Shown piece by piece: positions 3,693-40,952 of a stretch of DNA of 64,000 nt. The translations under genes were made by a program, and so were the position numbers. This DNA comes from Escherichia phage vB_EcoM-Ro121c4YLVW, in the sequence record NC_052654.1, one strand, 5' to 3'. The number at the start of each line of letters is the position of its first letter. Within the stretch, counting starts at the first letter, position 1. Below the pieces are notes generated by a model. It was not told the DNA's origin. It saw only the letters and a program-made list of their open reading frames with translations, and searched no databases.

Positions 3693-3694
3693 TT

Positions 3695-7867: not shown

Positions 7868-7876
7868 GGAGAGAAC

Positions 7877-8020: not shown

Positions 8021-8026
8021 GAAACA

Positions 8027-8383: not shown

Positions 8384-8934
8384 TGTTTATTACAAGCGAT
8401 TTGCATTTTATGCATAAACGTATTCGAGAGTTTGCTCCTGAATATCGTCCGTGGGAAGATATGGACCACATGACAGAAGCCTTGATCGAAGCATGGAACA
8501 AATGTGCTACTACTCCTGGTGTTAAGATGTGGCATTTGGGCGACTTCTGTTTCGGAACTGAAGAAGATACCCGTAAAATTGCTTCTCGTCTCCAAGGAGA
8601 TATCACCTACTGTGTTGGGAACCATGACTACAGCAAACACCGAGAAGTGCTTGCAGAGTATGGTGAAGTGGTGTATTATGACGAAGTGAAATATCAGAAG
8701 CTGTTCTTCGTCTTAAGTCATTACCCTATGGCCTCCTGGAATAAACAAGGTCGTGGATCAATCATGCTACACGGGCATTCCCACGGATCTTTCCCTGATG
8801 AAGCTTATGGTAAAATGTTAGATGTGGGTTGGGATGCACACGGAAAAATCTTGCATTTTGATGAGATAATTTCTATGATGAGTAAACGAGATATCGTGAC
8901 TGTAGACCATCACAAAATAATCAAAGGAGAGTAA
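8383..8934 (+). CDS. calcineurin-like metallophosphoesterase
   Basis: Motifs SDLH, GDFxFG, GNHD, GHSHG (metallophosphatase signature); ATGA overlap with upstream gene. Confidence 0.65.
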   Translation: MFITSDLHFMHKRIREFAPEYRPWEDMDHMTEALIEAWNKCATTPGVKMWHLGDFCFGTEEDTRKIASRLQGDITYCVGNHDYSKHREVLAEYGEVVYYDEVKYQKLFFVLSHYPMASWNKQGRGSIMLHGHSHGSFPDEAYGKMLDVGWDAHGKILHFDEIISMMSKRDIVTVDHHKIIKGE

Positions 8935-8935
8935 T

Positions 8936-9868
8936 GTGACTAAATTTAATTGCGACGATTTGGTTGAAAAAGGTTTAGTTCATAAGAAAACATATAAAGA
9001 AGGAGAGTATTCTGGTCTATCTGTTCTTAAGTATAAGAACAAAGTTTTCTGGGATAACTTATGGAGCATTGATTCTCGTCTTCTAGAATGTCGCGGAATC
9101 GTTGTTGATGCTGATGACAATGTTGTTATTTGGCCTTTCACTAAGATTTTTAATCGTTTTGAGAATGGCACAGATCTACCATTGGATGAACTTGTAGATG
9201 TGGTTCGTAAAGTAAATGGTTTTATGGCCTCTGTAGGTGTATATAAAGGTCAACTTATTGTATCGACAACAGGAAGCCTTGAATCAGATTTTGCAAGTAT
9301 TGCAAAGAATCGTATTGTTTCAGAGTGTGATGACATAGAACATTTCATCAAATGGACAGAGAGTGCAAAAGCAACTTTCCTTTTTGAAATCTGTGATCCT
9401 TCTGATCCGCATATTGTCGAAGAAGAACCAGGTGCATACTTAATTGGTGCCAGAATTCAAAATCCTGATGGGACAAGTTTTATGTTACCTGAAGGTGCTC
9501 TTGATGGAATTGCTTCTGTCACCAAATTTAAGCGTCCTGAAGTTCATCCAATGGTTAAGTTTTCAGATGTTGTTGAAATGTCTAAACATTGTAAACACGA
9601 AGGGTTTGTAGTTCGTGAAACAAACTATCCGTTCAACTTACTTTTAAAAATTAAATCACCACACTATCTTACTAAGAAGTTTCTTATGCGCGGTGGAGAT
9701 AAAAAGTGGGATCTGATTTGGGATAATCCAAAAAATGCCAAACAAATGGTTGACGAAGAATATTACGCTTTGTTAGAATGGATTCGAAATAATTTTACGA
9801 AGACTCAATGGGCTGCTTTAAATCAGCAAGAGCGACGTGAAAAAATCGAAAACTTTTTTGGAGGATAA
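8936..9868 (+). CDS. ligase-family nucleotidyltransferase, RNA-ligase-like (motif I KVNG, motif V EGFVVRE)
   Basis: GTG start; lysine nucleotidyltransferase motifs with Asn in place of Asp in motif I; sits between phosphoesterase and polynucleotide kinase. Confidence 0.45.
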   Translation: MTKFNCDDLVEKGLVHKKTYKEGEYSGLSVLKYKNKVFWDNLWSIDSRLLECRGIVVDADDNVVIWPFTKIFNRFENGTDLPLDELVDVVRKVNGFMASVGVYKGQLIVSTTGSLESDFASIAKNRIVSECDDIEHFIKWTESAKATFLFEICDPSDPHIVEEEPGAYLIGARIQNPDGTSFMLPEGALDGIASVTKFKRPEVHPMVKFSDVVEMSKHCKHEGFVVRETNYPFNLLLKIKSPHYLTKKFLMRGGDKKWDLIWDNPKNAKQMVDEEYYALLEWIRNNFTKTQWAALNQQERREKIENFFGG

Positions 9869-10273
9869 ATGAAACAACTTATCATTTTACGTGGCGTTTC
9901 AGGTGCTGGTAAATCTACAGTAGCAGAAATTATTTCTGAAGGTTATTGGCCTATCTGTGAGGCAGATCAATATCATTACACAGAGAGTGGTGTTTACGAT
10001 TGGAAGCCAGAAAATGTAGGTAAAGCACACGCATGGTGTCAGGGTATTGTTCGTGATGCTATGGCATCTAATCTTAACAAGATTATTGTTTCTAATACTT
10101 CAACCACAGAGAAAGAACTTAAACCTTATCTAGCTCTTGCTGAAGAGTTTGGTTATCAAGTTATCTCTTTAATTGTTGAAAATAGGCACGGTAATGATTC
10201 AATTCACGAGGTTCCACAATATATCCGTGATCAGCAAGAGAAACGTCTTCGTGGTTCACTTAAACTTCAATAA
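9869..10273 (+). CDS. P-loop polynucleotide-kinase-like protein
   Basis: Walker A GVSGAGKST at N-terminus, size and layout like the T4 Pnk kinase domain. Confidence 0.55.
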   Translation: MKQLIILRGVSGAGKSTVAEIISEGYWPICEADQYHYTESGVYDWKPENVGKAHAWCQGIVRDAMASNLNKIIVSNTSTTEKELKPYLALAEEFGYQVISLIVENRHGNDSIHEVPQYIRDQQEKRLRGSLKLQ

Positions 10274-18052: not shown

Positions 18053-18661
18053 ATGCAGATAGTATGTGATTGGGATTTAGTTGTGGCTCCATTAGATGTT
18101 GCTTGGTTAGAATGGTTGAATAAGATTAGTGGACTTGGTGTTAAGATAGATACATTCACAAAAAATGCAGACTATGATCTTACCAACTACTTTCCTGGTT
18201 TCAGGGAGGAGTTCAATATAGATCCTTACGGATTTCTGGATAATCCTCATCTCTATGATACAATGGGTTTTGTTCCAGGTATGCCAGATTTCTTAAAGTA
18301 TGTTTCAAGGAAAGGTAGCAATCTTTTGATCGCAAGTGTGACAAAAGGTGGTCACTTAAGTTCTAAACATAAGCATGTTTTAAGAACGTTAGATACGATT
18401 GATTTTAGCAAAGGATCTGGTAACGGCTTTTTTGCTACGAAAGAAAAATACTTATTGCCTTGTGATATAGCAATAGATGACAGGGCTGATAACCTACTAT
18501 ATTTTCCAGATGAAGTGGTTAAAATATATTTTAATACGCCTTATAAAGATAACCATCTAGAAGAACTAAAGAAAAAACCAAATGTTGTGATCACAGGTTT
18601 AGAAGATCAGTGGCTAACATGTTTGGATGTTTTTAACACTTTGAACAATTTTAAAAACTAA
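18053..18661 (+). CDS. HAD-superfamily 5'(3')-deoxyribonucleotidase-like protein
   Basis: N-terminal DxD (VCDWDLV) and C-terminal IDDR motif typical of NT5C-type nucleotidases. Confidence 0.45.
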   Translation: MQIVCDWDLVVAPLDVAWLEWLNKISGLGVKIDTFTKNADYDLTNYFPGFREEFNIDPYGFLDNPHLYDTMGFVPGMPDFLKYVSRKGSNLLIASVTKGGHLSSKHKHVLRTLDTIDFSKGSGNGFFATKEKYLLPCDIAIDDRADNLLYFPDEVVKIYFNTPYKDNHLEELKKKPNVVITGLEDQWLTCLDVFNTLNNFKN

Positions 18662-18670: not shown

Positions 18671-19669
18671 ATGACAAAACAGATTTCGGCTAGTATTATT
18701 GCGCATTCCATCACTGAAGACGGAAAAGAGATTGTAACTTTCGAACTTGAATATCCACGTATTATTCATTCAGAACTGATGACTCACCGCCTGTTCAGTC
18801 GTAACGCTGCTTCTAGCCGTGCTATACCTGTTAAAACATTGATCGAAATGGTGCGAAATCAGCCTGCTCGTCCTTATCGTTTTGGGGCTAACCAACCTGG
18901 TATGCAGGACAAAGGTGTTGACCATGATGCTCTTATTGATGCAGGTTATACTGCTCAAGAGTGGTGGGATCTTGCCGCGCTTAGTGCAGCACGTTTTGCA
19001 GAAGAATTCTCTTTGGCAGGGTACCACAAACAAGTTGCAAACCGTCTTCTGGAACCTTTCCAACGAATTAAAACAGTTCTGACAGCAACAGAATATGAAA
19101 ATTTCTGGTGGCTACGTGATGACAAAGAAGCCGATCCTACTATCGAAGCTTTGGCTAAAGAGATGCACAAAGAGTATGAAGGATCTACACCAGAAGTGCT
19201 GAAACCAGGGCAATGGCACACACCTTATGTAGACCATTTCTATGATAGTATTGGCACAGAAGGTGACGATCATTTTGTTTTTGGTGGATACTACGTTCAA
19301 GATGAATCTGGAGAAGTTGTTGTGCTTACTTTGGAAGAAGCCAAAGCTATTTCAGCTTCGTGTTGTGCACAGGTTAGCTATCGTCGTTTAAATGCAACTA
19401 AAGATAAAGCTTTAGATATCTATGGTCGTTTGCTGACTGGGCGTAAGGTTCATGCTTCTCCGTTTGAACATCAAGCTACTCCAATGCAAGAAACATGCGA
19501 ACAATATGGAGAGAACTGTTTTGAAGATTTGTTTATCAATGCTCCTTGGGATTTTAACTCTTGGGAACCAGGTATTACCCATGTAGATCGTAATGGTAAG
19601 TTTTGGTCTGGCAATTTCAAAGGCTGGATTCAACATCGTCAACTTTTAACAAATCATACTAAATGGTGA
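18671..19669 (+). CDS. thyX: flavin-dependent thymidylate synthase ThyX
   Basis: ThyX signature RHRLFSRNAASSRA (RHRx7-8S). Confidence 0.8.
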   Translation: MTKQISASIIAHSITEDGKEIVTFELEYPRIIHSELMTHRLFSRNAASSRAIPVKTLIEMVRNQPARPYRFGANQPGMQDKGVDHDALIDAGYTAQEWWDLAALSAARFAEEFSLAGYHKQVANRLLEPFQRIKTVLTATEYENFWWLRDDKEADPTIEALAKEMHKEYEGSTPEVLKPGQWHTPYVDHFYDSIGTEGDDHFVFGGYYVQDESGEVVVLTLEEAKAISASCCAQVSYRRLNATKDKALDIYGRLLTGRKVHASPFEHQATPMQETCEQYGENCFEDLFINAPWDFNSWEPGITHVDRNGKFWSGNFKGWIQHRQLLTNHTKW

Positions 19670-20445: not shown

Positions 20446-22686
20446 TTGATTCGTTTTGTAACTAAATCTAACGGTAAGACAGAGGAGTTTAATCCAGAAA
20501 AACTTCGTAAGTGGTCTGAATTTGCAGCAGGTAAACTAAACTGGTCTGAAATTGAATTAGAAGCTGTGAAGCGGTGTTATGACGGTGTGTCTACACGTGA
20601 TCTGCATAAAGCAATGATTGCAGCGTGTATTGACAAGAAAACACAAGCTTACAGTGATATGGCAGGAAGACTTCTTCTGGGTATGATTTACAAACAGGCT
20701 CATGGGGGATACCACAGTATCCCTTCACTGAATACCTTTTATCATGATATGGTAGAACGTGGACATTGGGCTAAAATGGATTATACCGATGAAGAGATCA
20801 AAGAAATCGGTAAGATTGTAAAGCATAATAAAAATCTAACTTATGGTTATTCTGTTTTACGTCAGATGGTAGATAAATATCTTATTCGAGATGCAGTAAA
20901 CGATGTGGTGCATGAGTCTCCACAGTTTCTTTTCATTGGTATCGCAATGAAGGTTATGGAGATCCAACCAAAAGAACGCCGTATAGAAGATATTAAAAAA
21001 CTTTATACTTATGTTAGCGATCTTAAGATTAATCTGCCATCGCCGTATCTGACAACTCTACGAACTCCAATCAAAGGAAGTGCGTCTTGTTGTTTATTCC
21101 GTGCAGACGATACGGCAGAGTCTTTAGCCATTGCTAATTACTTAGCTCATGAGTATACGTTGAATAACGCAGGTATTGGTGTTAATCTTCAAACTCGTGC
21201 CACAGGTCAAGGTGTTAAGAATAATCGTATTATTCATGGTGGTCTTCTTCCGTATCTGAAATGGATGGAAGATAGTGTTGGAGCTTCAAAGCAAGCAAGT
21301 CGTGGAGGTAGTGCTACAGTTACCTTTACCATACTTGAACCAGACTTCGACGATCTGATTCGACTGAAGAATCCAACAACACCTATAGATAAACGAGTAG
21401 ACAAACTGGATTATTCTATTGTTGTTAACCGTTCGTTCTTGCGTCGAGCAGCTAAAAACGAAGACTGGATGTTAGTTAGTTGTGATGATGCTCCTGAACT
21501 TTATGAAGCTTTGTATAAAAGTGAAGAAGAGTTTGATGCAGTTTATGACAAAGTAAGCCGACGTCGCATTAAGAAAAAATTCGTCAAGGCTCGTGATCTT
21601 CTTACAGAGATTATTGTTCAACGTGCAGAAACAGGACGTATTTACATGTTCTTTGCTGACAACGTTAACAACCATACACCTTTCTTGGATACGGTGTATC
21701 AATCAAACCTGTGTCAAGAGATCTTCTTACCAACTAAAGCTTTCCACAGTATGCCGGATCTCTTTACTGGTGAAAATACAGAAGATCAAGAATTGGCTTT
21801 ATGTTTCTTATCTTCTATTGTTGCTGGTCGTGTATTACCTGAAGAATATGAGGATGTTGCATACTACACTGTATTGACAATTGACAACGTTATTGAAACA
21901 ATGGATTATCCATTTAAACATAACGAAATAACTGCTAAAGCACGTAGATCTATTGGTGTAGGCATTACAAACTTAGCACATTACTTGGCAAGTAATTTTG
22001 TAAATTATTCAGATGATTATGCTAAAAAATTAATGCATGAACTTGCAGAACGTCATTACTTTTGGTTGGCAAAAGCCTCTTTGCGTCTGGCTAAGGAAAA
22101 AGGTAATGCAGAATGGATCGATAAGACCAAATGGCCTCAAGGTTGGCTACCAATTGACACCTATGCTAAAGCAGTAGATAGTGTCGGTAACTTTGATCTT
22201 AAAATGGACTGGGAAGGTTTACGTGCTGAAATCATTGAACAAGGTGGTATCCGTAATAGTGTCTTGGCTGCTATTGCACCTAATGAGTCCAGCAGTTTGG
22301 TAAGCAATACTACTAACTCTCTGTACCCTGTTCGTGATACTATTATGTATAAACAAAGTCAGAAAGGTAGTGTATTATTTATTGTTCCAGACTACGAAAA
22401 ACTGAAAATGTTCTACCAATCCGCCTGGGATACTCCGGCTAAAGATCTTGCAGAAATGTATGGTATCTTTACCAAGTTTACGGACCAAGGAATTTCTTGT
22501 GATTCTTGGCTAGATTATTCTAAATTGGTAGGTGGACGTTTATCAGTGAAAGCCGAGATGCAGTTTATTCTGAATTTTGCTAGATTGGGTGGCAAGTCAT
22601 TGTATTACCTTAATAGTAGAACAAAATCAGCAGATTCTTTAGCACAAGAAGATTCTGATGGTGGTTGTGAAGCTTGCAAGATGTGA
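20446..22686 (+). CDS. nrdA: ribonucleoside-diphosphate reductase large subunit (class Ia NrdA)
   Basis: N-terminal ATP-cone, active-site NLCQEI, size 746 aa; TTG start after GGGAGGAG. Confidence 0.9.
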   Translation: MIRFVTKSNGKTEEFNPEKLRKWSEFAAGKLNWSEIELEAVKRCYDGVSTRDLHKAMIAACIDKKTQAYSDMAGRLLLGMIYKQAHGGYHSIPSLNTFYHDMVERGHWAKMDYTDEEIKEIGKIVKHNKNLTYGYSVLRQMVDKYLIRDAVNDVVHESPQFLFIGIAMKVMEIQPKERRIEDIKKLYTYVSDLKINLPSPYLTTLRTPIKGSASCCLFRADDTAESLAIANYLAHEYTLNNAGIGVNLQTRATGQGVKNNRIIHGGLLPYLKWMEDSVGASKQASRGGSATVTFTILEPDFDDLIRLKNPTTPIDKRVDKLDYSIVVNRSFLRRAAKNEDWMLVSCDDAPELYEALYKSEEEFDAVYDKVSRRRIKKKFVKARDLLTEIIVQRAETGRIYMFFADNVNNHTPFLDTVYQSNLCQEIFLPTKAFHSMPDLFTGENTEDQELALCFLSSIVAGRVLPEEYEDVAYYTVLTIDNVIETMDYPFKHNEITAKARRSIGVGITNLAHYLASNFVNYSDDYAKKLMHELAERHYFWLAKASLRLAKEKGNAEWIDKTKWPQGWLPIDTYAKAVDSVGNFDLKMDWEGLRAEIIEQGGIRNSVLAAIAPNESSSLVSNTTNSLYPVRDTIMYKQSQKGSVLFIVPDYEKLKMFYQSAWDTPAKDLAEMYGIFTKFTDQGISCDSWLDYSKLVGGRLSVKAEMQFILNFARLGGKSLYYLNSRTKSADSLAQEDSDGGCEACKM

Positions 22687-22692
22687 TGAAAC

Positions 22693-22715
22693 TAGGGGCT
22701 TCGGCCCCTTTTTAT
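22693..22715 (+). terminator. intrinsic terminator AGGGGC-TTCG-GCCCCT + TTTTT
   Basis: Direct reading; same hairpin recurs at 28862 and 40961. Confidence 0.6.
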
Positions 22716-22730
22716 TGAGGAGAATTTTAA

Positions 22731-23816
22731 ATGGCAGCAATTAATTTACACAATGAAGTTTACAAAACAGGAAAATATCCAGTATTTTTAGGGGAACAAT
22801 TAGGGATTTTTGATTCTGTTAACGTAACTTATCCAGAGATGCACAAACTCTACAAACTTCAAAAAGCACAAGATTGGGATGAGAATGAAGTCAATCTGGA
22901 TCAAACACGTAAAGATTTCGTAGCTTGTTCTAAAAACAACTATGATGTTATGATTAAAAACTTATCGTTCCAATGGGAAAATGATTCTCTTGCAAAATCA
23001 ATCATCACTTTGTTCTCTCCATTCTTGAGTAACAATGAAGCCTGTGCTATGATGATGAAGCAGAGTGAAATGGAAGTTCTCCATGCGTTAACGTATTCTG
23101 AAATAATCCGTCAATGTACTCCAGATCCAATCGAAGTCATCAATCAGATTATGATTAATGATAAAATTTTCAATCGTATGGGTATCATTGCTGATATCAT
23201 GGGTCAGTTGGAAGAAGCTGGTCATAAGTATGCTCTAGGATTGATTGAAGCTAACGATGAACTTCGACTGCTGATTCTTAAAGGGATGGTAGCCCTGATT
23301 GGATTAGAAGGTATTCAGTTTATATCTTCCTTCTCTGCTACTTTTGCTATGGCAGAACAACAACTGTTTGTTGGGGCTTGTAAACTGATCCAGAAAATTA
23401 TGCTAGATGAAATCTTGCATGTTAAGATGGATTACGCTGTAATTGATGCATTGATGCATGACCCAATTTGGCGTAAAATTTACGAAGATAATATTGAAGA
23501 GTTGACTTTGATCCTCGACACTGTTGTTGAACAAGAGGAACAGTGGTGTGACTACCTGTTTAGTGAAGGGCGTTTTATTGTAGGTCTTAACGCCGAATTG
23601 TCTAAACAGTGGGTTTATTTCAATGCTGCTCCTATTTATCGTCGATTGAAAATGAAAGCCAAGTTTAAAGCACCTAAACATAGTCCTTTAGCTTGGATGG
23701 AAAAATGGTTGAATCCTGATTTGATTCAGTCAGCAGCCCAAGAGATTCAGTTAACTAATTACAAATTGAATTCAGCTAACAAAGATCTCTCTGATGATGA
23801 GGAGCTTGACTTCTAA
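22731..23816 (+). CDS. nrdB: ribonucleoside-diphosphate reductase small subunit NrdB
   Basis: Size and position after nrdA, ferritin-like helical profile with conserved E/H ligands. Confidence 0.8.
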   Translation: MAAINLHNEVYKTGKYPVFLGEQLGIFDSVNVTYPEMHKLYKLQKAQDWDENEVNLDQTRKDFVACSKNNYDVMIKNLSFQWENDSLAKSIITLFSPFLSNNEACAMMMKQSEMEVLHALTYSEIIRQCTPDPIEVINQIMINDKIFNRMGIIADIMGQLEEAGHKYALGLIEANDELRLLILKGMVALIGLEGIQFISSFSATFAMAEQQLFVGACKLIQKIMLDEILHVKMDYAVIDALMHDPIWRKIYEDNIEELTLILDTVVEQEEQWCDYLFSEGRFIVGLNAELSKQWVYFNAAPIYRRLKMKAKFKAPKHSPLAWMEKWLNPDLIQSAAQEIQLTNYKLNSANKDLSDDEELDF

Positions 23817-24025
23817 TGATTTTGAGATGTGTTGGTATAATCGACACATTCAAAGACGTTTTTGATAAAGGGGCTTCTTATGAAGCCTCTGAAATGAAGA
23901 ATGGTTTTTGTGATGTATTCGGTAAACGCCTGAAGAAAAACGGCGATCCTTGGCTAGGAGTTATGTCTTGTGGTCATATTATTGTAAATGGTGTTGCCAA
24001 ATTTGAAATAATTAAGGAGGAATAG
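23816..24025 (+). CDS. hypothetical protein
   Basis: ORF track; ATGA overlap with nrdB stop. Confidence 0.4.
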   Translation: MILRCVGIIDTFKDVFDKGASYEASEMKNGFCDVFGKRLKKNGDPWLGVMSCGHIIVNGVAKFEIIKEE

Positions 24026-24177
24026 TGGCTGAAAAACTTATTTTTTGTCCTGTGTGCGGTGGGACGGGACAGATGGAAGTGGAAATTATGGTAACATTTC
24101 CTTGCCTGAATTGTCATGGTGAGGGGCGAGTAGTAGTCTTTGAAAAAGAAGGGTTGGAGGTAGAAGATGGAGAGTGA
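24025..24177 (+). CDS. small zinc-ribbon protein (CPVCGG...CLNCHG)
   Basis: GTG after AAGGAGG; two CxxC pairs. Confidence 0.35.
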   Translation: MAEKLIFCPVCGGTGQMEVEIMVTFPCLNCHGEGRVVVFEKEGLEVEDGE

Positions 24178-24331
24178 AAAAGAGTATGTCCGCATTCCAC
24201 GAGAATTAACAGATCACATTGCAGAAGCAATAGCTTTCGAAGCTAGATGTTGTGGAGGTATTGCTTACGATATTTATGAAGCAATTATTAAAGCTGCTCA
24301 AGAAGAGGAGGAGATGAATAATGGGTATTGA
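24167..24331 (+). CDS. small hypothetical protein
   Basis: ATG after GGAGGT; overlaps neighbours at both ends. Confidence 0.3.
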   Translation: MESEKEYVRIPRELTDHIAEAIAFEARCCGGIAYDIYEAIIKAAQEEEEMNNGY

Positions 24332-24647
24332 TATCGAATGGCGTATGTTACAGGGTGCACCATATGATAAATGGAAAGAAATATTTGGAGACGACCCACA
24401 AGTTGAAGACCAGTTCGATGGGGACTTTAATTGGTTTCTCTGCGAAGGTTTGGGCTTGGAAAACATTTCCCCGTGGTACGATGCAGATCCTGAAGATTGT
24501 GTCTTCGGTGTCAAGCTGTGTAGCGGCTGTGGTGCTTGTGCCATAGACCTCACAAGCTTAAATAAAAAAGCGAATGAGATCTATTTTGAACTGCTTAATA
24601 AGTATAATATTGAAACTGAAACATTAGTATCACAAAACGTCTGGTAA
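24321..24647 (+). CDS. hypothetical Cys-containing protein
   Basis: ORF track. Confidence 0.45.
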   Translation: MGIDIEWRMLQGAPYDKWKEIFGDDPQVEDQFDGDFNWFLCEGLGLENISPWYDADPEDCVFGVKLCSGCGACAIDLTSLNKKANEIYFELLNKYNIETETLVSQNVW

Positions 24648-24656
24648 GGAGAACTG

Positions 24657-25649
24657 ATGCGCTATCTGGTAACAGGTGGTCTTGGTTTTATTGGGAGTGC
24701 CGTGGTGCGCTCTCTTTGTCAAGATCCTAATAACGAAGTTTTTGTCGTTGATAAGATGAGCTATGCAGCAGATATTGAGAATGTAGGCGATATCACTCAC
24801 GTTAAACTAAGCATGACAGATTTGGCAAACGAAGCCCAAGTAAAAAGTTTAGTAGTAGAGTGCAATCCCGATTTCATCATTCACTTAGCGGCAGAGAGTC
24901 ATGTGGATAATTCTATCAAGAATCCACGAGTTTTCATCGACTCCAATATTATTGGTACATACAATTTATTGGAAGCTGCAAGGCTCCTCCCAAAGAATAA
25001 ACTGAAGATGTTCGTACACGTCTCCACAGACGAAGTGTACGGCGATATGGCAGACTCTGGCGTTCCCTTTACCGAAGAGACAGCTTATGCCCCTTCAAGC
25101 CCATACAGTGCGTCTAAGGCAGCATCTGACCATCTTGTGAAAGCTTGGCACCGTACCTACGATTTGCCTGTTGTGATAACCAACTGCTCCAATAACTTTG
25201 GACCTTATCAACATCCAGAAAAGCTGATCCCAAAAATCATCACAAGTATTTTGACGAATAAAGAGATTCCGGTGTATGGTAAAGGCGATCAGGTGCGAGA
25301 CTGGCTTTTTGTTGAGGATCATGCGAGAGCTATTCTTCAAGTGGCAACAGGTGGAGAACCAGGCCAAACGTATAACGTTGGAACACGTAATCCCAAAACC
25401 AATATGGAGATCATCTATATGGTTTGTGACTACATGGATGCTGTACATCCAGAAGCAGGAACCTACCCTTCTTCCAACTTGATAACTTTTGTTGAAGATC
25501 GTAAAGGACATGACTTGCGTTATGAAATCAATCCTTCTAAGATAGAGTCTGAACTGGGTTGGAGTGCAAACTCTACATTTGAACAAGATCTCTACTCAAC
25601 GATTGAATGGTACTTAAACAACCCTCAATGGTGGAGTGAGAAGATTTAA
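24657..25649 (+). CDS. rmlB: dTDP-glucose 4,6-dehydratase
   Basis: Rossmann GGLGFIGS, catalytic YxxxK (YSASK), SDR-extended family length. Confidence 0.85.
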
Positions 25650-25657
25650 GGAGGGCT

Positions 25658-26536
25658 ATGAAAGGTATTATTTTGGCTGGAGGAAGTGGAACCCGCCTTC
25701 ATCCGGTAACACGCAGCGTGAGCAAGCAATTGCTCCCTGTGTATGACAAACCCATGATCTACTACCCTTTATCGGTATTGATGTTGGCTGACATTAAGGA
25801 TATCTTAATCATCACCACACCAGGCGATCAGGAAGACTTTGAGTATCTTCTCGGAGATGGGTCTATGTTTGGGATAAAACTCACTTACGCAATCCAATCC
25901 GAGCCACGAGGTCTTGCGGACGCTTTCATCATCGGTAAAGATTTTATCGGAGAAGACTCTGTTGCTCTTATTTTAGGTGACAACCTATTCTTCGGACAAA
26001 GCTTTGGTAAACTACTGATTAACGCCAGTGAGATGGTAGATGTTTGGGGCGGAGCTTGTATCTTCGGGTATTTGGTGAAAGATCCTGAACGATTCGGTGT
26101 GGTTGAATTTGGGAGTAATCGTCAAGCTATTTCTATTGAAGAGAAACCTGAAAATCCTAAATCAGATTACGCTGTCACAGGTTTGTATTTCTATGATAAC
26201 TCTGTTGTTCAACGTGCATTAGAAGTAACCCCTTCCGCGCGTGGAGAACTGGAGATCACAGATATCAATCGCAGCTACCTCGAAGACAGGAAGTTACAAG
26301 TGGAAGTTCTCGGACGAGGATTTACTTGGCTTGACACAGGAACACACGCCAGTCTGATGGAAGCTGGTCAATTCGTGCAGACTATTGAGAACCGGCAAGG
26401 ATTGAAGATTGCGTGCCTGGAAGAAATTGCTTTCAAAAAAGGGTGGATTTCTTTAGAGACTTTGGTGTATCATGGAAACTCACTGAAGAAAACAGAATAC
26501 GGGCAATACCTACTCAAATTAGCGGAGAGAAAATGA
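25658..26536 (+). CDS. rmlA: glucose-1-phosphate thymidylyltransferase
   Basis: N-terminal [16 protein letters not shown] nucleotidyltransferase signature; 292 aa. Confidence 0.85.
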
Positions 26537-27099
26537 AAGTAGAAAAAACAAAAATTGAAGGTGCGGTAATTATCAAACCAGACGTTTATAAAGATGATCG
26601 TGGTTTCTTTTTAGAAACATATAATGAACAAAAATACGAAGATATTATTGGTAGACAAACTTTCGTTCAAGATAACATGTCTAAATCAAACTTCGGTGTT
26701 TTGCGAGGAATGCACTTTCAAACAAATAATCCGCAAGGTAAGCTTGTTCGTTGTGTAAGTGGGGAAGTATTGGATTTCGCTGTAGACCTACGTAAAGATA
26801 GTCCTACTTACGGTGCTTGGGACGGTGTTGTTCTTCGTGCACGACACCATACACAGTTCTGGCTTCCACCTGGTTTGGCACATGGTTTTATAGTGTTGAG
26901 TATGGATGCTATCTTCGAATACAAATGCACAACTCCATACGACCCTTCCAGCGAACAAAGTTTACGTTGGGATGATCCTGATATAGGGATTGATTGGGGC
27001 TTCGATATGATTTTTGACGAAGATTTTAAACCTATCTTATCAACAAAAGATGCAATGGCTAAGTCTTTTCAACAGCTACGTAGCGAGGGTGTATGCTAA
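26533..27099 (+). CDS. rmlC: dTDP-4-dehydrorhamnose 3,5-epimerase
   Basis: Cupin-type RmlC (about 188 aa) beginning [14 protein letters not shown]; ATGA overlap with rmlA. Confidence 0.8.
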
Positions 27100-27935
27100 C
27101 ATATCTGGTATTGGGCGGTAATGGACAACTGGGACAAGCTTTACGTAAAGTGGCTCCTTCAAATGTATCTTTAATTTATCCTAAAGAACGTGTAGATATT
27201 ACAAATTTTGAAGCTGTGCGAAACGCTATTGTTGAAGATTATGTAGATGGTGTTATTAATTGCGCTGCTTATACGGCTGTAGATAAAGCAGAACATGATT
27301 TTGCTACTGCTTTGGCTGTTAATTCCTACGGCCCTGCAAACATTGCAGCAGTGTGCAGTAAACTTAAAATTGATTTTGTGCATATTTCTACAGACTATAT
27401 TTTTAATTACTCTCATCCTATTTTTGAAGATACTACACCTAACCCAATAAACAATTATGGGTATACGAAAGAACTTGGTGAAAAAATGGTGCGAGGAGTT
27501 AACCCAAATGCATATATTATTCGAACAGCCTCGGTATATAGCGAATTTGGAAATAACTTTCTAAAAACCATGTTGTCTCGCTATAATGATGGACAACGTG
27601 ATTTTATTATTGTTGCTGATCAGTTCTCTTGTCCAACATATGCTCCAGATTTAGCAGAAGCTATTTTTGAAGTATTAAAAACAGGTTGGTCAAGGTCTGT
27701 TAAGACTTACCATTTTGCAGGAAGCCATCTTATTTCTTGGGCGGAGTTTGCGGAAAAGATCTTGACACAGATGCCAGAACCTGTTAAGATATCGGCGGTA
27801 TCAGCTTCAACCTATAATGCTCCAGCAGCACGTCCGGTGAAGTCACAATTAGTAACCAGTCACTATCTTACAAAATCAGATTTAAATAAAGGTATTGAAC
27901 GGTCTTTAGCAGTATTACTTAATAAGGAGAGGTAA
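27093..27935 (+). CDS. rmlD: dTDP-4-dehydrorhamnose reductase
   Basis: Rossmann LVLGGNGQLG; completes the B-A-C-D operon. Confidence 0.75.
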   Translation: MLTYLVLGGNGQLGQALRKVAPSNVSLIYPKERVDITNFEAVRNAIVEDYVDGVINCAAYTAVDKAEHDFATALAVNSYGPANIAAVCSKLKIDFVHISTDYIFNYSHPIFEDTTPNPINNYGYTKELGEKMVRGVNPNAYIIRTASVYSEFGNNFLKTMLSRYNDGQRDFIIVADQFSCPTYAPDLAEAIFEVLKTGWSRSVKTYHFAGSHLISWAEFAEKILTQMPEPVKISAVSASTYNAPAARPVKSQLVTSHYLTKSDLNKGIERSLAVLLNKER

Positions 27936-28195
27936 TGGAATTTGTAATTTTTGGTAAACCTAACTGTCAATTTTGCGAAATGTCAAAACAACTATTAACC
28001 ATGCGCAATAAACAGTTTGAATATTTAAGTCTTGACCAAGACTACGATTTAGAATCAATGACTAAAACAGTTGTTGATCTTACCGGAGTTCCTCCACGCA
28101 CATTTCCACAAATTCTGTCTGAAGTGAACGGGGAGGTAACATACGTAGGCGGTTTTACCGAACTGCGTGATCTCATGGCTCAAATTGCGGAGTAA
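27935..28195 (+). CDS. glutaredoxin/NrdH-like thioredoxin-fold protein (CQFC)
   Basis: CxxC after beta-strand near N-terminus; 86 aa. Confidence 0.55.
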   Translation: MEFVIFGKPNCQFCEMSKQLLTMRNKQFEYLSLDQDYDLESMTKTVVDLTGVPPRTFPQILSEVNGEVTYVGGFTELRDLMAQIAE

Positions 28196-29686: not shown

Positions 29687-30190
29687 TTGATGGGTGTAGC
29701 AACAATAGCTATCGGAAGAAGCGGTATAGATGAGTGCTATCAAACGGGACTCGTAAAACCTAACGAATTTCGTCAAATTTGTGTAAACCATATTGAAAAA
29801 GAGATTGCTCTTACTTTAGAGAATATGACCCTCCGAGATAAACTGGAAATGTTTAAATGTTGGTGTCTAGGAGAAGATTGGCTTTTAAACCATTTTCAAG
29901 AACTTTCTGATAGTAAAGAAAGCTTGTTTGATTGTATAATAGGAATAGCTGGCTCCGATCCTAGCCTTCTGCACATAACAGAAGAAGAGGCGAAGTTACT
30001 GTTCTTAAGTAATTTGTTTAATAAGAAAGCACTGCTTGTTCGTGATTGTAGTGATCTTCTTAATAACCCGCTCGCAACGTCTGATCAAATTTTTGTTGAC
30101 AAAGAGACACTACGTGCGATAGAATACATCTGCAAATATGTGAATGGCGGGAAAGCGGTTCTTAAAACATTAACAGAGGAGGAAGAATAG
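29687..30190 (+). CDS. hypothetical protein
   Basis: ORF track. Confidence 0.45.
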   Translation: MMGVATIAIGRSGIDECYQTGLVKPNEFRQICVNHIEKEIALTLENMTLRDKLEMFKCWCLGEDWLLNHFQELSDSKESLFDCIIGIAGSDPSLLHITEEEAKLLFLSNLFNKKALLVRDCSDLLNNPLATSDQIFVDKETLRAIEYICKYVNGGKAVLKTLTEEEE

Positions 30191-30882
30191 TGACGACAAT
30201 TATTGCAACCAAAAATAAGATTTTGAGTGACGGTAAGGTAACTTTTGGTGGACGTGTAGATTCTATTAATTTCAAAAAGGTCCGAAAAATTGGAGATTAC
30301 CTTGTAGGTGGTGCTGGTCGTCTGACCTCCGTGCTTTCTTTCTTTCAATGGTTTGAACAAAATCTACAGTGCGAAGCAGCACGTGATGCTGTCCCTGGTT
30401 TGATGATTCACTCTGATCCAGATAAAGAAGATGAAGAGTTTATTGCACTTGTTGTTCATCCAGACGGACGTATTTTCCTGCACGAAGGTAATAACCCAAC
30501 ACGTGCATATCCGATTGATGAAGAATATTATGCGGTAGGAAGCGGGTCAGACTTTGCTTTAGCTGCTCTTGATGCAGGGGCAACACCAGAACAGGCTATG
30601 GAAGTAGCTAAAAAGCGAGATGCTTTTTCTGGTGGTGAAACATTTATTGAAGAACAAGACGAGATTATTGAATTAACAGATGATGATTTAGAAAACTTCT
30701 CCAAAGAAGAATTGATCAATCTTTTGAAATTCGGTAATCCCTACGGTGAAGAAGAACCTCGTAACGTGGCAGGTAACGAGGCGGATACTGAAGAAAAATC
30801 TGTTGCAGAAAACAACTTGACTTCTAAATCTGAAAATATTAATCTCGTAAATGTGGCGGATTTCGAAGGAACCGCTATTTAA
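30190..30882 (+). CDS. HslV-like Ntn-hydrolase peptidase
   Basis: N-terminal MTTIIAT (Thr nucleophile after Met), GG and AVGSGSDFALAA blocks; acidic C-terminal extension. Confidence 0.5.
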   Translation: MTTIIATKNKILSDGKVTFGGRVDSINFKKVRKIGDYLVGGAGRLTSVLSFFQWFEQNLQCEAARDAVPGLMIHSDPDKEDEEFIALVVHPDGRIFLHEGNNPTRAYPIDEEYYAVGSGSDFALAALDAGATPEQAMEVAKKRDAFSGGETFIEEQDEIIELTDDDLENFSKEELINLLKFGNPYGEEEPRNVAGNEADTEEKSVAENNLTSKSENINLVNVADFEGTAI

Positions 30883-35882: not shown

Positions 35883-36063
35883 AACAGTAGAAGAAGCCGT
35901 AAAAGCAGCTTATGAGGCTTTAGCGGAAGCAGAGCAGTTAGCAGATGAGACTGGTAAAGGTTTCCGTTTCTCCCCTGAATATGGGATGGGTGGCTATTAT
36001 GATCCAGAAGATGAAAATGAGAATACTGGAACAAATTGGCATCCATCTTCTTTAAGTTGTTAA
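35866..36063 (+). CDS. small protein, C-terminal W-H-P-S-S-L-S-C family member 1
   Basis: ORF track; shares C-terminal WxSSxC tail with two downstream genes. Confidence 0.45.
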   Translation: MTTKFKTVEEAVKAAYEALAEAEQLADETGKGFRFSPEYGMGGYYDPEDENENTGTNWHPSSLSC

Positions 36064-36074
36064 TAGGAGGTAGA

Positions 36075-36350
36075 GTGGGAATCGAAGATATCAAAGGTTA
36101 TAAGGCGCATACTGACGATAAGATTGGCAAGGTTAACGCTATTAAAGATGCAGAAGAGCGTTTAGGTTTAATCTTCAAAGCTTTAGAGGAAGAGTATTGT
36201 GAAGCATATCATGGGTCTTTTGACGGCACAGAAAAAGAATTAGGTCTTGCATACGAACGTATTGATCAAATCCGTTGTGCTATTAGACATTTAAAAGAAG
36301 CTAGTATGTGGGCTTGTCGTTCAGTTTTCCAACCAGAGGAGAAATACTAA
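36075..36350 (+). CDS. hypothetical protein (GTG start)
   Basis: GTG after AGGAGG within ORF 36036..36350. Confidence 0.4.
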   Translation: MGIEDIKGYKAHTDDKIGKVNAIKDAEERLGLIFKALEEEYCEAYHGSFDGTEKELGLAYERIDQIRCAIRHLKEASMWACRSVFQPEEKY

Positions 36351-36940: not shown

Positions 36941-37882
36941 ATGGTGTTAATTGGTAGCCGTGCATTGCAAATTCATGCTATGGACATGGGAAAAGACTTG
37001 TATCGCCCTTGTGTAGATTTAGATTACCTGTGTACAGAACAAGAGTGGGAAGAATTATCAAAAATGTTCTCTCAAGAGGAGTTTGTTGAACTTGTAGAAC
37101 GTAAAGGAAACAAAGGCCATGTCAAAATGATAGCTGGTGCACATTTGGAATACGATATTGCTTCTCAAGGAGATAGCACAGAAGCTTTGATTAGTTATTG
37201 TGAAGATTCTGATGATGTTCGTCGAACTTACGCTGGACATGTTGTTGCTCCTTTAGATGTGCTCTACCTTCTTAAAATGAGTCATCGTTTTAAAAAGGAT
37301 AGTCCTCACTTCTTTAAAACTATGAAAGATATTCATTTCATGCGGTCACTGGGCGCAAAGATCCCAGAAAATCTTAAGAGTATTTATGAGTTGCGTGAGA
37401 AAGAAACATACACTTACTCTCATCCGAACTTAAACGTAAAAAGTAAAGACTTTTTTAAAGGTGATGAGGTTCCGTATGTTTATGATCATGATTCTATCCA
37501 TGAAGCAATCGCGGTAATGGATGCTCCGGCATATAAATCTTATATGAAAGATGGAAGTGAAGTTATGACCAGCAAAGAAAAGTTTTTTGCTCAACCAAAA
37601 CATGTGCGCCTGTTAGGTGTTTATGAAGAAGCGTGTGTTTTGGCTTTGGAACGTTCACAAATTCCTTTCGGTGGAGAGATCGGAGGTCCAACCCCTAAGC
37701 AAAGTTTTATAATGGCTTTATCTAAAGTCTGCACATCCATCACTAGTGGTTGGTTTAGGGAATATGCTTGGGAAAACTTTTATGTTGTTATTAAGCTATA
37801 TGAAAACATGGGCGAAAACGACTATGTTGAACGTTTTAAAGCTAATCAACATGTAGTAAAGCCTTTTGAAGGAGGTTATTAA
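36941..37882 (+). CDS. hypothetical protein (313 aa)
   Basis: ORF track. Confidence 0.5.
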   Translation: MVLIGSRALQIHAMDMGKDLYRPCVDLDYLCTEQEWEELSKMFSQEEFVELVERKGNKGHVKMIAGAHLEYDIASQGDSTEALISYCEDSDDVRRTYAGHVVAPLDVLYLLKMSHRFKKDSPHFFKTMKDIHFMRSLGAKIPENLKSIYELREKETYTYSHPNLNVKSKDFFKGDEVPYVYDHDSIHEAIAVMDAPAYKSYMKDGSEVMTSKEKFFAQPKHVRLLGVYEEACVLALERSQIPFGGEIGGPTPKQSFIMALSKVCTSITSGWFREYAWENFYVVIKLYENMGENDYVERFKANQHVVKPFEGGY

Positions 37883-37883
37883 T

Positions 37884-38279
37884 ATGTGTGGATATCTTTC
37901 AGAAAGTTATTTCAAAGTGACGCACGAGGATTTAGAAAAAGCACGATTGAAACTGACAGCTATTATTGAATACTCTAATACTGTTGATCACAGATTAAAG
38001 ACTACTAAAGTATCTGTTCCTTGTTGGTTAGGTTTACGGCATAAAATAATGTCTCAACATGACCATGTTGTTCGAGAGATGCATGGTTGGTGTTGGTTTC
38101 ACGATGTGGCTCTGCATTTTGGTTATATTACAGAAGAAGAGCATAGATTCTGTGAACTAACATATCGTATTCCAACCCTTCACGATTTAGATTTGTGGAA
38201 GAAAGCAAACGAGATTTTTCTTACAGAAAGTGATTGGCGTAAAGTTATGGCTTGTCTTGAATGGAGGGGTAATGAGTAA
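37884..38279 (+). CDS. hypothetical protein
   Basis: Internal Met of ORF 37866..38279 after GGAGG. Confidence 0.45.
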   Translation: MCGYLSESYFKVTHEDLEKARLKLTAIIEYSNTVDHRLKTTKVSVPCWLGLRHKIMSQHDHVVREMHGWCWFHDVALHFGYITEEEHRFCELTYRIPTLHDLDLWKKANEIFLTESDWRKVMACLEWRGNE

Positions 38280-38955
38280 AACAGTTTTGTCTATGTTTGA
38301 CGGATCTGGGATCATGGTGTTACGTTATGCCGAAGCAGGTCACAAGTGTTTTTGTGTAAACGCTGATGAAGGGGATCACGGTAAATACGAGGTTAGGATG
38401 GAGCACCCAAACATAACCTATGTGAATGCCTGGATAGATTCTACATTCAACCCTGAAGATCATGGGATACCTAAACCCGATATTATTTTTGGATTTCCAC
38501 CTTGCACTATGTTAGCAGGTAGTGGTAGCAAACACGAACGCAGCACAGAGGAATTGGATGAAGCTTTAGCTAATATTCGTGTAGTGGAAGCTTTGGGTAA
38601 CAAATATAATGTTCCTTGGATGATTGAGAACCCAGTAGGTAAACTTTCAACCTTATGGCGTAAACCCGATTTTTACTTTGATCCTTATGAGTATGGTGGG
38701 TATTTGTTTGAAGAGGAAGGAAGCTTTCATCCTAAAATGCCTACCCGTGATGGGTATACAAAGAAAACTTGTATTTGGCACGGCAATGGTTTTGTTCAAC
38801 CAGTGAAGAAACCAGTAGATCATATAGGCTGCTTCTGGGGTTGGAAAAGCTTAGGTGGAGCTAGTGCAAAAACAAAACAACTTAGATCACTAACCGCACG
38901 TGGTTTTGCTCGTGCAGTGTTTTTGTCTAACAATCTTCTAGATAAGGAGAAATAA
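38272..38955 (+). CDS. C5-cytosine-methyltransferase-like SAM-dependent enzyme (tentative)
   Basis: Motif order FDGSG (I), GFPPC (IV, PC), ENP (VI-like), R-rich C-terminus; short for a complete Dcm. Confidence 0.4.
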   Translation: MSKTVLSMFDGSGIMVLRYAEAGHKCFCVNADEGDHGKYEVRMEHPNITYVNAWIDSTFNPEDHGIPKPDIIFGFPPCTMLAGSGSKHERSTEELDEALANIRVVEALGNKYNVPWMIENPVGKLSTLWRKPDFYFDPYEYGGYLFEEEGSFHPKMPTRDGYTKKTCIWHGNGFVQPVKKPVDHIGCFWGWKSLGGASAKTKQLRSLTARGFARAVFLSNNLLDKEK

Positions 38956-39608
38956 TGTTAAATTCAAAACCAGTGGTTGCTTATCAAGTAGATCGTAATG
39001 ATGGTGAAGGAAGTGTTGTTATTTTCAGTACACACGGTCTTGAGGCTCGTCGAAAAGGTGCATATCGTTTAGAATGTGAGTTTGAAGACTGCACAAGCCA
39101 CCGTGTCAAACAATTCGATCAATATGCTGATAAAGGCTTCGTCCCTATCAAAGCGTTACTGGAAGATGGTTGGTGGGTATATTCTGCTTTTGATTACTCA
39201 AAACTGGAGGAGTCAGCTTCGTGCGCCTCCGAGATCGAATATGATGATTACTATGACACTCTATACCTTCCAGAATGGCTTGTCTTTTCTCCTGATGAGA
39301 GAAGTGTCTGGAAAACGTGGGAAGAAATGGAGAGACATGCGTATAGCATCAATGAAGCTTTAGATCGTAAAACTTGGTTTATTGAGGCAGTAAAGGCGGC
39401 ATACCCCCAATTCTCATTCTGTGATTTCACTGGCGGCCCAGGATACATTACACATACAGCCTCTTTTGAGTTTCCTGGTTCACGTTATAAGGGTAATGTT
39501 TATTGGGACTGGGATGAAAATAAACAACCTTCGGCTCAAGACTTCCGTTGCTATGTTTGTCAAGGCGATCAAGAAGCCCTTGACAAATACCTACAAAATC
39601 TGGTATAG
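38955..39608 (+). CDS. hypothetical protein
   Basis: ORF track. Confidence 0.45.
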   Translation: MLNSKPVVAYQVDRNDGEGSVVIFSTHGLEARRKGAYRLECEFEDCTSHRVKQFDQYADKGFVPIKALLEDGWWVYSAFDYSKLEESASCASEIEYDDYYDTLYLPEWLVFSPDERSVWKTWEEMERHAYSINEALDRKTWFIEAVKAAYPQFSFCDFTGGPGYITHTASFEFPGSRYKGNVYWDWDENKQPSAQDFRCYVCQGDQEALDKYLQNLV

Positions 39609-39666: not shown

Positions 39667-40152
39667 ATGTTTCAAGTAAATGTCAATGTGCATAATAGTT
39701 ACTCTGATTGTGAAACGTGTGGCTATAATTCATCTAATGTTATTCGTATTAGTGGCGATTTAGGAGAAGCTTCTTTTGGAGAAGAAGCAAGTTGCTTTAG
39801 TGGTATGGATGCAGAATGGAATGATATTGCACATTGGTTAGTGAGCAAACTAAAAGAAAAAGAGAAACCATTTCCTACTCTGCTTGATCGTTCTCTTGTG
39901 GAAGATGCAGGTAAAGCATATGCAGACTATGCGTATGCAGACGGGAAATATTTGGAAGATGATAAGGCTAACCATTTGCTTTATGTTTACTATGAAGCTG
40001 AATCTGCCTACGATAATTATTACAGCATGTCTAACATCCTACGTCTGTTTGCAGAGTTTGATATTTATTTCGAAGTAGAATTTTCAGAAGATGATACTTA
40101 CGAGTACAATTCTTATGATCCATTTGAGGAGGAAGAATGCCAAGACGAGTGA
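39667..40152 (+). CDS. hypothetical acidic protein
   Basis: ORF track. Confidence 0.45.
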   Translation: MFQVNVNVHNSYSDCETCGYNSSNVIRISGDLGEASFGEEASCFSGMDAEWNDIAHWLVSKLKEKEKPFPTLLDRSLVEDAGKAYADYAYADGKYLEDDKANHLLYVYYEAESAYDNYYSMSNILRLFAEFDIYFEVEFSEDDTYEYNSYDPFEEEECQDE

Positions 40153-40952
40153 TTTTTGTAAGCGGTGCAGGTTTAAGTGCAGACAGTGGGATTCGAACAT
40201 TTAGAACAGACACAGATAGTGGTCGTGCTTTATGGGAAGAATATGATTTAGAAGAGGTCTGCGATATTGGAGCTTTCCAAGCAGGTTATCGTGTTAGAAC
40301 ATCTCCAGATCTTCCAGTGGTCGGTGGTGTAGACGAGAACGGTATGGATTTGTATGCCAAAACACACGAATTTTATAACAAAAGACGTGTTGAGCTTAAA
40401 GATGTACAACCTAATGCTGCACATATTCAAATAGCAAAGTGGTTTAAGGAATATCCTAACCAAATAGTAAACTTGACAACAAACGTTGATGATCTACTAG
40501 AGCGAGCAGGTGTAGACAGAGATTCTGTTATTCACGTACACGGATATCTTCCTGAAGTAGTTTACCGTATGCATCCCGGAGATTACAAAACACTGGTAGA
40601 TATTGGTTACAATAGTATAAACATAGATGATTATAACTGGGTGAAGCCTAATGTTGTATTTTTTGGTGAGGCTGCACCTTTGTATGCAGATATGGCTCAC
40701 TTGTTCGATACTTTGACCATGCAAGATTTGGTTGTAGTAGTAGGATGTTCAAACCAAGTTATCAATTTTAATTGGGAATTATTTCCTGCACTTAGTATGG
40801 GTACAAAAATGGTTGTAGTTAACCCTGGAGTTAATTACGAAGAAACACTTCTCTATGAAGATCGTGGAGTTTTTGTTTACCGAGAAAAAGCTGCAACAGC
40901 CTTCAGCAATGAAGGTTTCATTAAAATGGTCGAAGACCACTTAAACAAATAA
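40137..40952 (+). CDS. Sir2-family (sirtuin-like) NAD-dependent protein
   Basis: N-terminal FVSGAGLSADSGIRTFR matches sirtuin NAD-binding signature; VHVHGYL catalytic His region. Confidence 0.65.
   Translation: MPRRVIFVSGAGLSADSGIRTFRTDTDSGRALWEEYDLEEVCDIGAFQAGYRVRTSPDLPVVGGVDENGMDLYAKTHEFYNKRRVELKDVQPNAAHIQIAKWFKEYPNQIVNLTTNVDDLLERAGVDRDSVIHVHGYLPEVVYRMHPGDYKTLVDIGYNSINIDDYNWVKPNVVFFGEAAPLYADMAHLFDTLTMQDLVVVVGCSNQVINFNWELFPALSMGTKMVVVNPGVNYEETLLYEDRGVFVYREKAATAFSNEGFIKMVEDHLNK

Follow-up and report, generated by a model that had tools for sequence, protein, structure and literature searches.

The 64,000-nucleotide stretch of DNA analysed here (the window; sequence record NC_052654.1, Escherichia phage vB_EcoM-Ro121c4YLVW) carries four consecutive genes on one strand, rmlB, rmlA, rmlC and rmlD, which are predicted to encode the complete and intact pathway to dTDP-L-rhamnose. 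An earlier note, made from the letters alone, had proposed this operon, and each of the four proteins now scores above the cut-off of its NCBIfam equivalog model. The operon as such is already known and has been annotated since 2012 in phage phAPEC8 (JX561091); what we add is a module of glycosyltransferases (GTs) outside the window, the history of the operon's insertion, and an rmlBA/rmlCD polymorphism that complements the gene content of the host. The puzzle is why coliphages of an obligately lytic lineage should maintain rhamnose synthesis of their own together with four GTs. We tentatively favour an explanation in which the self-made rhamnose would be passed to the phage's own GTs and from there to an acceptor other than DNA, and we place this chain as a whole a little below the point at which it could be called probable.

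The rml operon and its place in the phage backbone

NCBIfam equivalog models with curated cut-offs served as the identity test for the four Rml proteins. RmlB matched TIGR01181 with 431.6 bits (cut-off 365.1), RmlA matched TIGR01207 with 468.4 bits (cut-off 360.65), and RmlC matched TIGR01221 with 225.4 bits (cut-off 155.75), the sole NCBIfam family found for it; RmlD passed TIGR01214 by a narrow margin, with 235.9 bits against a cut-off of 224.05. The E-values of these four matches range from 1e-67 to 1e-141, well outside anything expected by chance, and the Pfam assignments agree with them. The signature motifs quoted in the earlier note are all present in the translations, and alignment with solved structures extends the agreement to the catalytic motifs. 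RmlB aligned end to end with PDB 1g1a (E=3e-111) with STDEVYG and YSASK conserved, and it shows what its family requires, namely an extended SDR with GxxGxxG, the Thr-Asp-Glu triad and YxxxK. RmlA conserves GGSGTRL, SKQLLPV, LGDN, EEKP and WLDTGT relative to 4ho0 (E=6e-126), including the catalytic Arg/Lys and the Asp residues of LGDN and WLDTGT, and RmlC, a cupin epimerase, conserves the His of RGMHFQ, the Lys of GKLVRC, the Tyr of EYK and the Asp of TKDA relative to 1dzr (E=4e-56). In RmlD, GGNGQLG, STDY and YGYTK are conserved relative to 3sc6 (E=1e-43), the last two also relative to 1vl0, and this protein is the most divergent of the four, with 54% amino acid identity to the RmlD of phage phi92. 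Together, RmlB, RmlA, RmlC and RmlD would very probably be active and convert glucose-1-phosphate and dTTP to dTDP-L-rhamnose in the infected cell.

The start of rmlC is an ATG that aligns from residue 2 of TIGR01221; a longer open reading frame (ORF) beginning with GTG at 26413 was set aside as an artefact, as the same alignment favours the ATG at 26533. The translational coupling that had been claimed for the whole operon holds for the overlaps between rmlA and rmlC (4 nt, ATGA), rmlC and rmlD (7 nt) and rmlD and the glutaredoxin gene grx (1 nt, TAATG), but not for rmlB and rmlA, which are separated by an 8-nt gap containing AAGGAGG. Scans for promoters and terminators around the operon gave background-level signals.

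At the nucleotide level, the region and its counterparts in phAPEC8-like phages (Phapecoctavirus, Stephanstirmvirinae) share 97.5-98.6% identity from end to end; these are lytic E. coli myoviruses of ~150 kb, and the same rml functions are annotated in them. The nearest E. coli genes, rffG/rffH and rfbB/rfbA, reach only ~65%. With ~98% identity to lytic phage genomes versus ~65% to E. coli rff/rfb, host DNA or contamination is ruled out, and the earlier view that the segment belongs to a lytic phage is upheld.

The surroundings of the operon were compared with those in KpS8, a phage of the Vequintavirinae that has no rml genes. Its gene order is thymidylate synthase (ThyX)-nrdA-nrdB-grx-...-endolysin-phoH, with grx directly after nrdB and zero genes between them; in the present window, four small ORFs and rmlBACD separate the two. 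Judged by this gene order, the rml operon is an insertion between nrdB and grx of a conserved backbone. As grx follows nrdB directly in KpS8, Grx is, on the same comparison, the partner of the NrdAB ribonucleotide reductase and not of the rml genes, despite its translational coupling to rmlD. The nucleotide-metabolism genes that had been pointed out nearby (ThyX, 5'-nucleotidase, NrdAB and glutaredoxin) were all located in the window (Table 1), but their value as a functional clue is weak: KpS8 has this neighbourhood without rml, so it is the backbone that the operon landed in. NrdB is 84% identical to its phi92 counterpart, and the four small ORFs correspond to phi92 gp068-072. The 108-aa ORF immediately upstream of rmlB gave no Pfam match.

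Two observations concern the same region. The 50-aa ORF of the inserted block (24025-24177, + strand) contains two CxxC pairs (CPVCGGTG...CLNCHGEG) resembling a DnaJ-type zinc finger, and phi92 gp070 is annotated as a 'putative DnaJ chaperone'. Downstream of phoH, an HslV/proteasome-like peptidase (30190-30882, + strand; PF00227, E=1e-5), called 'peptidase HslV family' in relatives, is conserved in Phapecoctavirus and phi92.

Table 1. Positions of the rml operon, its neighbours, the repeats around rmlB-rmlA and an apparent RNA-repair cluster in the window
Feature	Position	Strand	Remarks
cREC_REC cyclic-phosphate-processing receiver domain	7523-7867	+	
Metallophosphoesterase	8383-8934	+	
T4-type RNA ligase	8936-9868	+	
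AAA_33 kinase-like protein	9869-10273	+	
NT5C 5'-nucleotidase	18053-18661		window ORF
ThyX (PF02511)	18671-19669		sole thymidylate synthase in window
nrdA and nrdB, class Ia ribonucleotide reductase	20446..23816	+	backbone upstream of insertion
Four small ORFs	23816..24647	+	69, 50, 54 and 108 aa; in the block inserted between nrdB and grx
Left GGAGA	24648..24652	+	Shine-Dalgarno-like; bounds the 1,876-bp rmlB-rmlA cassette
rmlB, dTDP-glucose 4,6-dehydratase	24657..25649	+	330 aa
rmlA, glucose-1-phosphate thymidylyltransferase	25658..26536	+	292 aa
Right GGAGA	26524..26528	+	1,876 bp from left copy; fits breakpoint at query position 1868
rmlC, dTDP-4-dehydrorhamnose 3,5-epimerase	26533..27099	+	188 aa
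rmlD, dTDP-4-dehydrorhamnose reductase	27093..27935	+	280 aa
grx, glutaredoxin	27935..28195	+	86 aa; PF00462, 38.1 bits

The rmlB-rmlA indel and the gene content of the host

The distribution of the operon was followed in a set of 69 related records. The whole operon is covered in 45 of them, and ~23, about a third, match only from query position 1868, keeping rmlC, rmlD and grx and lacking rmlB and rmlA; rmlC and rmlD are retained in every related record seen. A phage without rmlA and rmlB, ESCO37, is also on record (PMC10269720). The order of the operon genes is the same in Phapecoctavirus, the phiWec group and the phi92-like phages, at 54-71% amino acid identity. Copies of GGAGA flank the rmlB-rmlA cassette in the window, and in Mt1B1_P17, which has the short form, a single GGAGA stands at the joint and the upstream gene ends 9 nt before rmlC. 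Aligned in this way, the long and short forms differ by a clean 1,876-bp indel between the GGAGA repeats. The short form would most simply be a deletion, because phi92 and the phiWec group carry all four genes in the same order. The short-form phages all retain the GT block described below.

Nearly every E. coli makes dTDP-4-keto-6-deoxy-D-glucose through RffH and RffG for enterobacterial common antigen (ECA). An RmlB/RmlA-type pair was found in 5,422 of 5,426 complete E. coli genomes, and we take this near-universal pair to be the ECA genes rffG/rffH. In the same genomes, blastn found K-12-type rfbD in 2,386 and rfbC in 2,348 (~44%), counts that are a lower bound given the sensitivity of blastn. 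The first two rhamnose steps thus appear always to be borrowable from the host and the last two often not. That the phages keep rmlCD and lose rmlBA against this host background argues that dTDP-L-rhamnose itself, the end product, is what the phage needs. RmlC and RmlD would form the indispensable core, and the phage copies would free the rhamnose supply from the serotype of the host, since more than half of strains are without RmlC/RmlD; RmlB and RmlA would merely boost flux and could be lost.

The two halves of the operon also differ in composition. The GC content at third codon positions (GC3) is 0.40-0.42 for rmlB and rmlA, 0.28 for rmlC and 0.23 for rmlD; most measured neighbours lie at 0.28-0.34, the 108-aa ORF immediately upstream of rmlB is at 0.39, and all four rml genes of phi92 lie at 0.18-0.25. 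The rmlBA pair may have been replaced by a foreign copy in Phapecoctavirus. Bacterial homologues of RmlA are ~70% identical to it, none closer than the phi92 orthologue with 71%, and RmlA is too conserved for this comparison to separate replacement from descent.

Genes of the rml type occur in other phages too, among them a cyanophage in which they are contiguous with a GT and an O-methyltransferase beside tail-fibre genes. A further candidate for an independent phage locus, 'Acinetobacter phage MD-2021a', was discarded: its contig 2 carries aspS, ilvE and an outer-membrane B12 transporter and resembles a bacterial chromosome. Three other records, 'Campylobacter phage B15', 'Acinetobacter phage vB_AbaM_ABPW7' and 'Klebsiella phage ZCKP1', share 97-99% identity with E. 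coli phapecoctaviruses where they were compared and are apparently mislabelled.

A glycosyltransferase block outside the window and its possible acceptor

That the window contains no GT, as the earlier note had it, is confirmed by Pfam searches with 55 additional ORFs (100 aa or longer) and by tblastn using the relatives' GTs. The note's conclusion that the acceptor must for that reason stay unknown proved an artefact of the window, since the genomes of close relatives contain four consecutive GT genes. In phage ukendt these are gp216-219, located between the endolysin and the primase/helicase-DNA polymerase genes, ~70 kb from the rml locus. The products of gp216 and gp217 are small GT-A-type proteins with DxD motifs that are recognised by PHROGs; gp218 and gp219 are GT4-like GT-B paralogues, 41% identical to each other, with weak GT-B Pfam matches. 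The block is present at full length in 69/69 related records, is orthologous in phi92 (66-76% amino acid identity) and, at 49-57% identity, recurs between the same flanking genes in metagenomic relatives. Two of the latter, L009 and L010, keep the block in the 20 kb examined, which stops short of any rml locus. In PVP-SE1, a single 93-aa ORF lies between the homologues of the genes that flank the four GTs in phi92, and relative to Vequintavirinae backbones the block is, by this comparison, an insertion. Among Stephanstirmvirinae records, NrdB occurs in ~131, RmlC in ~128 and gp217 in ~125, and neither the rml nor the GT module was found in Vequintavirinae relatives at the thresholds used. This distribution fits a gain of both modules on the same branch; as one event, it gives weak statistical support.

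Sequence searches of gp217 and gp219 against the PDB, and of all four GTs against NCBIfam, returned no meaningful match, and predicted structures were compared instead. The gp217 model (predicted local distance difference test, pLDDT, of 87) has a GT-A fold with an invariant FIFDDD motif. Among solved structures it is closest to A197, a viral GT from STIV, and next to collagen, mucin-type and teichoic-acid GTs, with a TDP-rhamnose transferase at rank 48; in a viral fold library, TAGT-domain proteins come at ranks 23-24. The gp219 model (pLDDT 92.6) is GT4-like and nearest to BshA, PglA, TreT and MshA, and the protein-glycosylating enzymes GtfC, Gtf3 and SdgB are among its top fold matches. PimA/PimB', TarM, TarP and TarS also appear among the matches of gp217 and gp219. 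As far as the models go, these matches appear generic to GT-A and GT4 and identify neither donor nor acceptor. In sequence, distant homologues of gp217 include ~350 mycobacteriophage GTs (27-28% identity over ~125 aa, E ~1e-8).

A related cassette occurs in a different setting. Contig AJHJ01000054 of Serratia sp. M24T3 carries, at 5589-7670, three GT genes colinear with gp216, gp217 and gp219 (41%, 37% and 39% identity) in an unrelated prophage, between holin/endolysin/spanin and HNH-terminase-capsid genes. Because this colinear cassette sits in an unrelated prophage, the GT module appears to move between unrelated phages and to work without DNA-replication neighbours.

On balance, dTDP-L-rhamnose would probably be the donor for the phage's own four-GT block. 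The acceptor would be a protein or glycan and not bulk DNA, and our leading guess, offered tentatively, is a protein of the phage virion; virion or other protein taken together is graded at this same tentative level. The premise of the earlier note that a phage has no envelope to decorate does not hold as an objection, as capsid glycosylation is reported for cluster-F mycobacteriophages (PMC11256854). It is possible, if somewhat doubtful, that these coliphages, which are in wide therapeutic use, make a rhamnose glycan from their own supply and attach it to their virions; they would then be the first phages of Gram-negative hosts in which this is seen. Some other acceptor, or no connection to the GTs, is placed between quite unlikely and doubtful.

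Several points weigh against this explanation. The link between rml and the GTs rests on one shared gain and the logic of donor supply; the two loci lie far apart, and dTDP-rhamnose can be assigned as donor to none of the GTs from sequence or fold. The rml genes are not visible on the 16.8-kb Serratia prophage contig that carries the GT cassette. The match of gp217 to the GT gp108 of mycobacteriophage Che8 is weak (E=0.02), and direct homology to the Che8 virion-glycosylation GTs was dropped as support on this account. No obvious Ser/Thr-rich tail is seen on the major capsid or decoration proteins of ukendt, and the genes around both modules are early/middle ones of DNA metabolism, not late ones. 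RmlD barely passes its cut-off and is the most divergent of the four Rml proteins, so a related 6-deoxy-L-hexose is possible and the product may be 6-deoxy-L-talose. Finally, no experimental test of rml or GT function in these phages was found in the literature.

The strongest competitor, which we nevertheless regard as unlikely, is remodelling of the host envelope, whereby the GTs would use dTDP-rhamnose on a lipid-linked or surface glycan such as the lipopolysaccharide (LPS) core, an O-antigen unit or ECA; masking of receptors, for example, would spare progeny and superinfecting phages a futile binding to debris or to cells already infected. Polysaccharide assembly typically relies on GT4-like and GT-A folds, PglA, PimA/PimB', TarM, TarP and TarS are among the fold matches, and the phages themselves recognise surface glycans and have depolymerase-type fibres (a colanic-acid-degrading protein and a tail spike). 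The moron-like position of the Serratia cassette, after the lysis genes of a temperate prophage, is compatible with lysogenic conversion, and the tail-fibre setting of the cyanophage rml-like genes, GT and O-methyltransferase also agrees with a surface role. However, an obligately lytic phage leaves little time in which new LPS or ECA could be displayed on the cell, the annotation of the ukendt genome contains no flippase, Gtr-type protein or O-acetyltransferase, and many isolates grow well on K-12, which lacks an O-antigen.

A role without the GTs is quite unlikely, even with its two variants taken jointly. In one, the pathway would act in metabolism, for instance by diverting dTDP-4-keto-6-deoxyglucose, a precursor of ECA and O-antigen, or by buffering dTTP; in the other, a protein, an RNA or a small molecule of the host would be glycosylated in aid of takeover or anti-defence. 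The operon lies within a module for deoxynucleoside triphosphate supply (ThyX, NT5C, NrdAB, Grx), 70 kb from the GTs, and ECA is reported as a primary receptor for relatives (PMC8594841). Yet a sink or diversion would need no complete pathway with a specific reductase conserved across three genera, consumption of dTTP during phage DNA synthesis looks counter-productive, and the retention of rmlCD after loss of rmlBA points to the end product.

Hypermodification of phage DNA, in which rhamnose would be transferred from dTDP-rhamnose to a base so as to evade restriction or other defences, is rated very unlikely. The earlier note had offered it as one of two options, and it was already a published conjecture: to Olsen et al. 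(2020) the place of the operon among DNA-metabolism genes was 'peculiar', and they suggested that hydroxymethylated nucleotides might be rhamnosylated, in the manner of T4 (PMC7552041). Vitt et al. (2024) returned to the 'rhamnose modification' with the caveat of restriction susceptibility (PMC10844046), following Maffei et al. (2021), who described Vequintavirinae and phi92-like relatives as 'exceptionally susceptible' to restriction-modification 'despite ... a putative dTDP glycosylation machinery' (PMC8594841). Both modules do lie among DNA-metabolism and replication genes, and besides the TAGT-domain proteins at ranks 23-24 in the fold search, gp217 has a sub-threshold match to TAGT (PF20691, 19.2 bits against a cut-off of 27.5) and one to phrog_842, the T-even beta-glucosyl-HMC-alpha-glucosyltransferase (E=5.5e-6 over ~40 residues); in sequence, these two matches are the sole sign of a DNA GT. 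Against this, the susceptible phi92-like relatives carry the same modules. Neither a ThyA-type hydroxymethylase nor a TET/JBP enzyme was found by Pfam in 75 window ORFs or in the annotation of the rest of the ukendt genome, and ThyX makes ordinary dTMP. No T4 DNA glucosyltransferase (alpha/beta-GT) is among the top 50 fold matches of gp219, whose nearest neighbours are GT4 enzymes, and a temperate prophage carries this GT cassette in its late region. Bulk DNA glycosylation is unlikely because no hydroxymethylase or TET was found, the GT folds are protein/glycan-like and the relatives are restriction-sensitive. A rhamnose glycan restricted to sparse or sequence-specific DNA sites, or borne by an acceptor that some unrecognised enzyme produces, is likewise given a slight chance, and it would be compatible with sensitivity to those restriction systems that have been tested. 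A system of Dcm, TET and GT, considered on account of the weak TAGT match, was rejected for now, the 'Dcm' ORF (38230-38955) having no Pfam match and the window no TET/JBP.

Comparison with known systems and further features of the window

Bacterial rml/rfb operons encode the same four enzyme families at the equivalog level with the same catalytic residues. The B-then-A order of the phage genes is that of rffG-rffH, and the full order is B-A-C-D in the phage versus B-D-A-C in the rfb operon of K-12. Unlike its bacterial counterparts, the present operon is borne by a lytic phage, lies between nrdB and grx and has no O-antigen genes adjacent. From phAPEC8 and the Phapecoctavirus records, with which it shares 97-99% nucleotide identity, it shows no substantive difference; the window represents one more Phapecoctavirus isolate with the four-gene form and not the rmlCD-only form, and the phi92 operon is orthologous with the same order.

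Glucosylation of hydroxymethylcytosine in T-even phages is similar in that a lytic phage uses its own GTs and a nucleotide-sugar donor, with the genes among early and DNA-metabolism genes. It differs in that no hydroxymethylase was found in the present phage and the top fold matches of gp219 are without T4 AGT/BGT. T4 takes its sugar donor from the host and encodes no sugar-nucleotide pathway. Virion glycosylation in Che8 (cluster F1; Freeman et al. 2023, cited through PMC11256854) shares with the present case a phage-encoded cluster of several GTs without other polysaccharide machinery, but no sugar-nucleotide pathway is present in the Che8 region inspected; Che8 virions are reported to be glycosylated, which those of Stephanstirmvirinae are not known to be. 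In giant viruses (Mimivirus and the chloroviruses), a virus-encoded rhamnose pathway and GTs feed the glycans of the virion, and host supply is not needed; the route is through UDP-L-rhamnose with UGD/UGER-type enzymes in eukaryotic hosts. The present system resembles theirs in combining its own rhamnose synthesis with its own GTs, and differs in that the pathway is the bacterial dTDP one and the virus a tailed phage.

Phages of this lineage are frequently isolated with therapy or biocontrol in view. Were the virion the acceptor, the way in which antibodies recognise therapeutic phages would be affected, and so would the pharmacokinetics of these phages, as reported for mycobacteriophages. If it is DNA, a new base modification with a dTDP-sugar donor would be at hand, and if it is the host envelope, the system would be a lytic-phage counterpart of serotype conversion. 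Natural rmlBACD and rmlCD-only phages, crossed with hosts with and without rfbCD and rffGH, provide a ready-made genetic matrix.

The window holds further features away from these modules. A 104-aa ORF (36036-36350, + strand) has an Acb2/Tad1 hairpin domain (PF24729, E=9e-17) and is annotated in ukendt as like T-even vs.4; judging by the domain, it probably soaks up cyclic-nucleotide immune signals (anti-CBASS/Thoeris). Nearby on the + strand are a DUF7277+DUF7275 protein (36941-37882), the ORF annotated as 'Dcm' in relatives (38230-38955; no Pfam match) and a SIR2-family protein (40137-40952). Around 57755-59311, where the coding strand switches, ~1.5 kb is without any ORF of at least 70 aa, and the AT skew farther along is strongly negative. 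This stretch has no Rfam match, only short and imperfect direct and inverted repeats, and is unannotated in ukendt too (record 37840-39375). The N-terminal domain of a serine recombinase/resolvase is encoded at 47782-48459 (- strand; PF00239, E=5e-18) in this obligately lytic phage, and phi92 likewise carries a 'DNA invertase', though elsewhere in its genome. An apparent RNA-repair cluster occupies 7523-10273 (+ strand; Table 1), and 11 tRNA genes at 1760-3769 (- strand; Rfam RF00005, 39-72 bits) match the tRNA cluster of ukendt.

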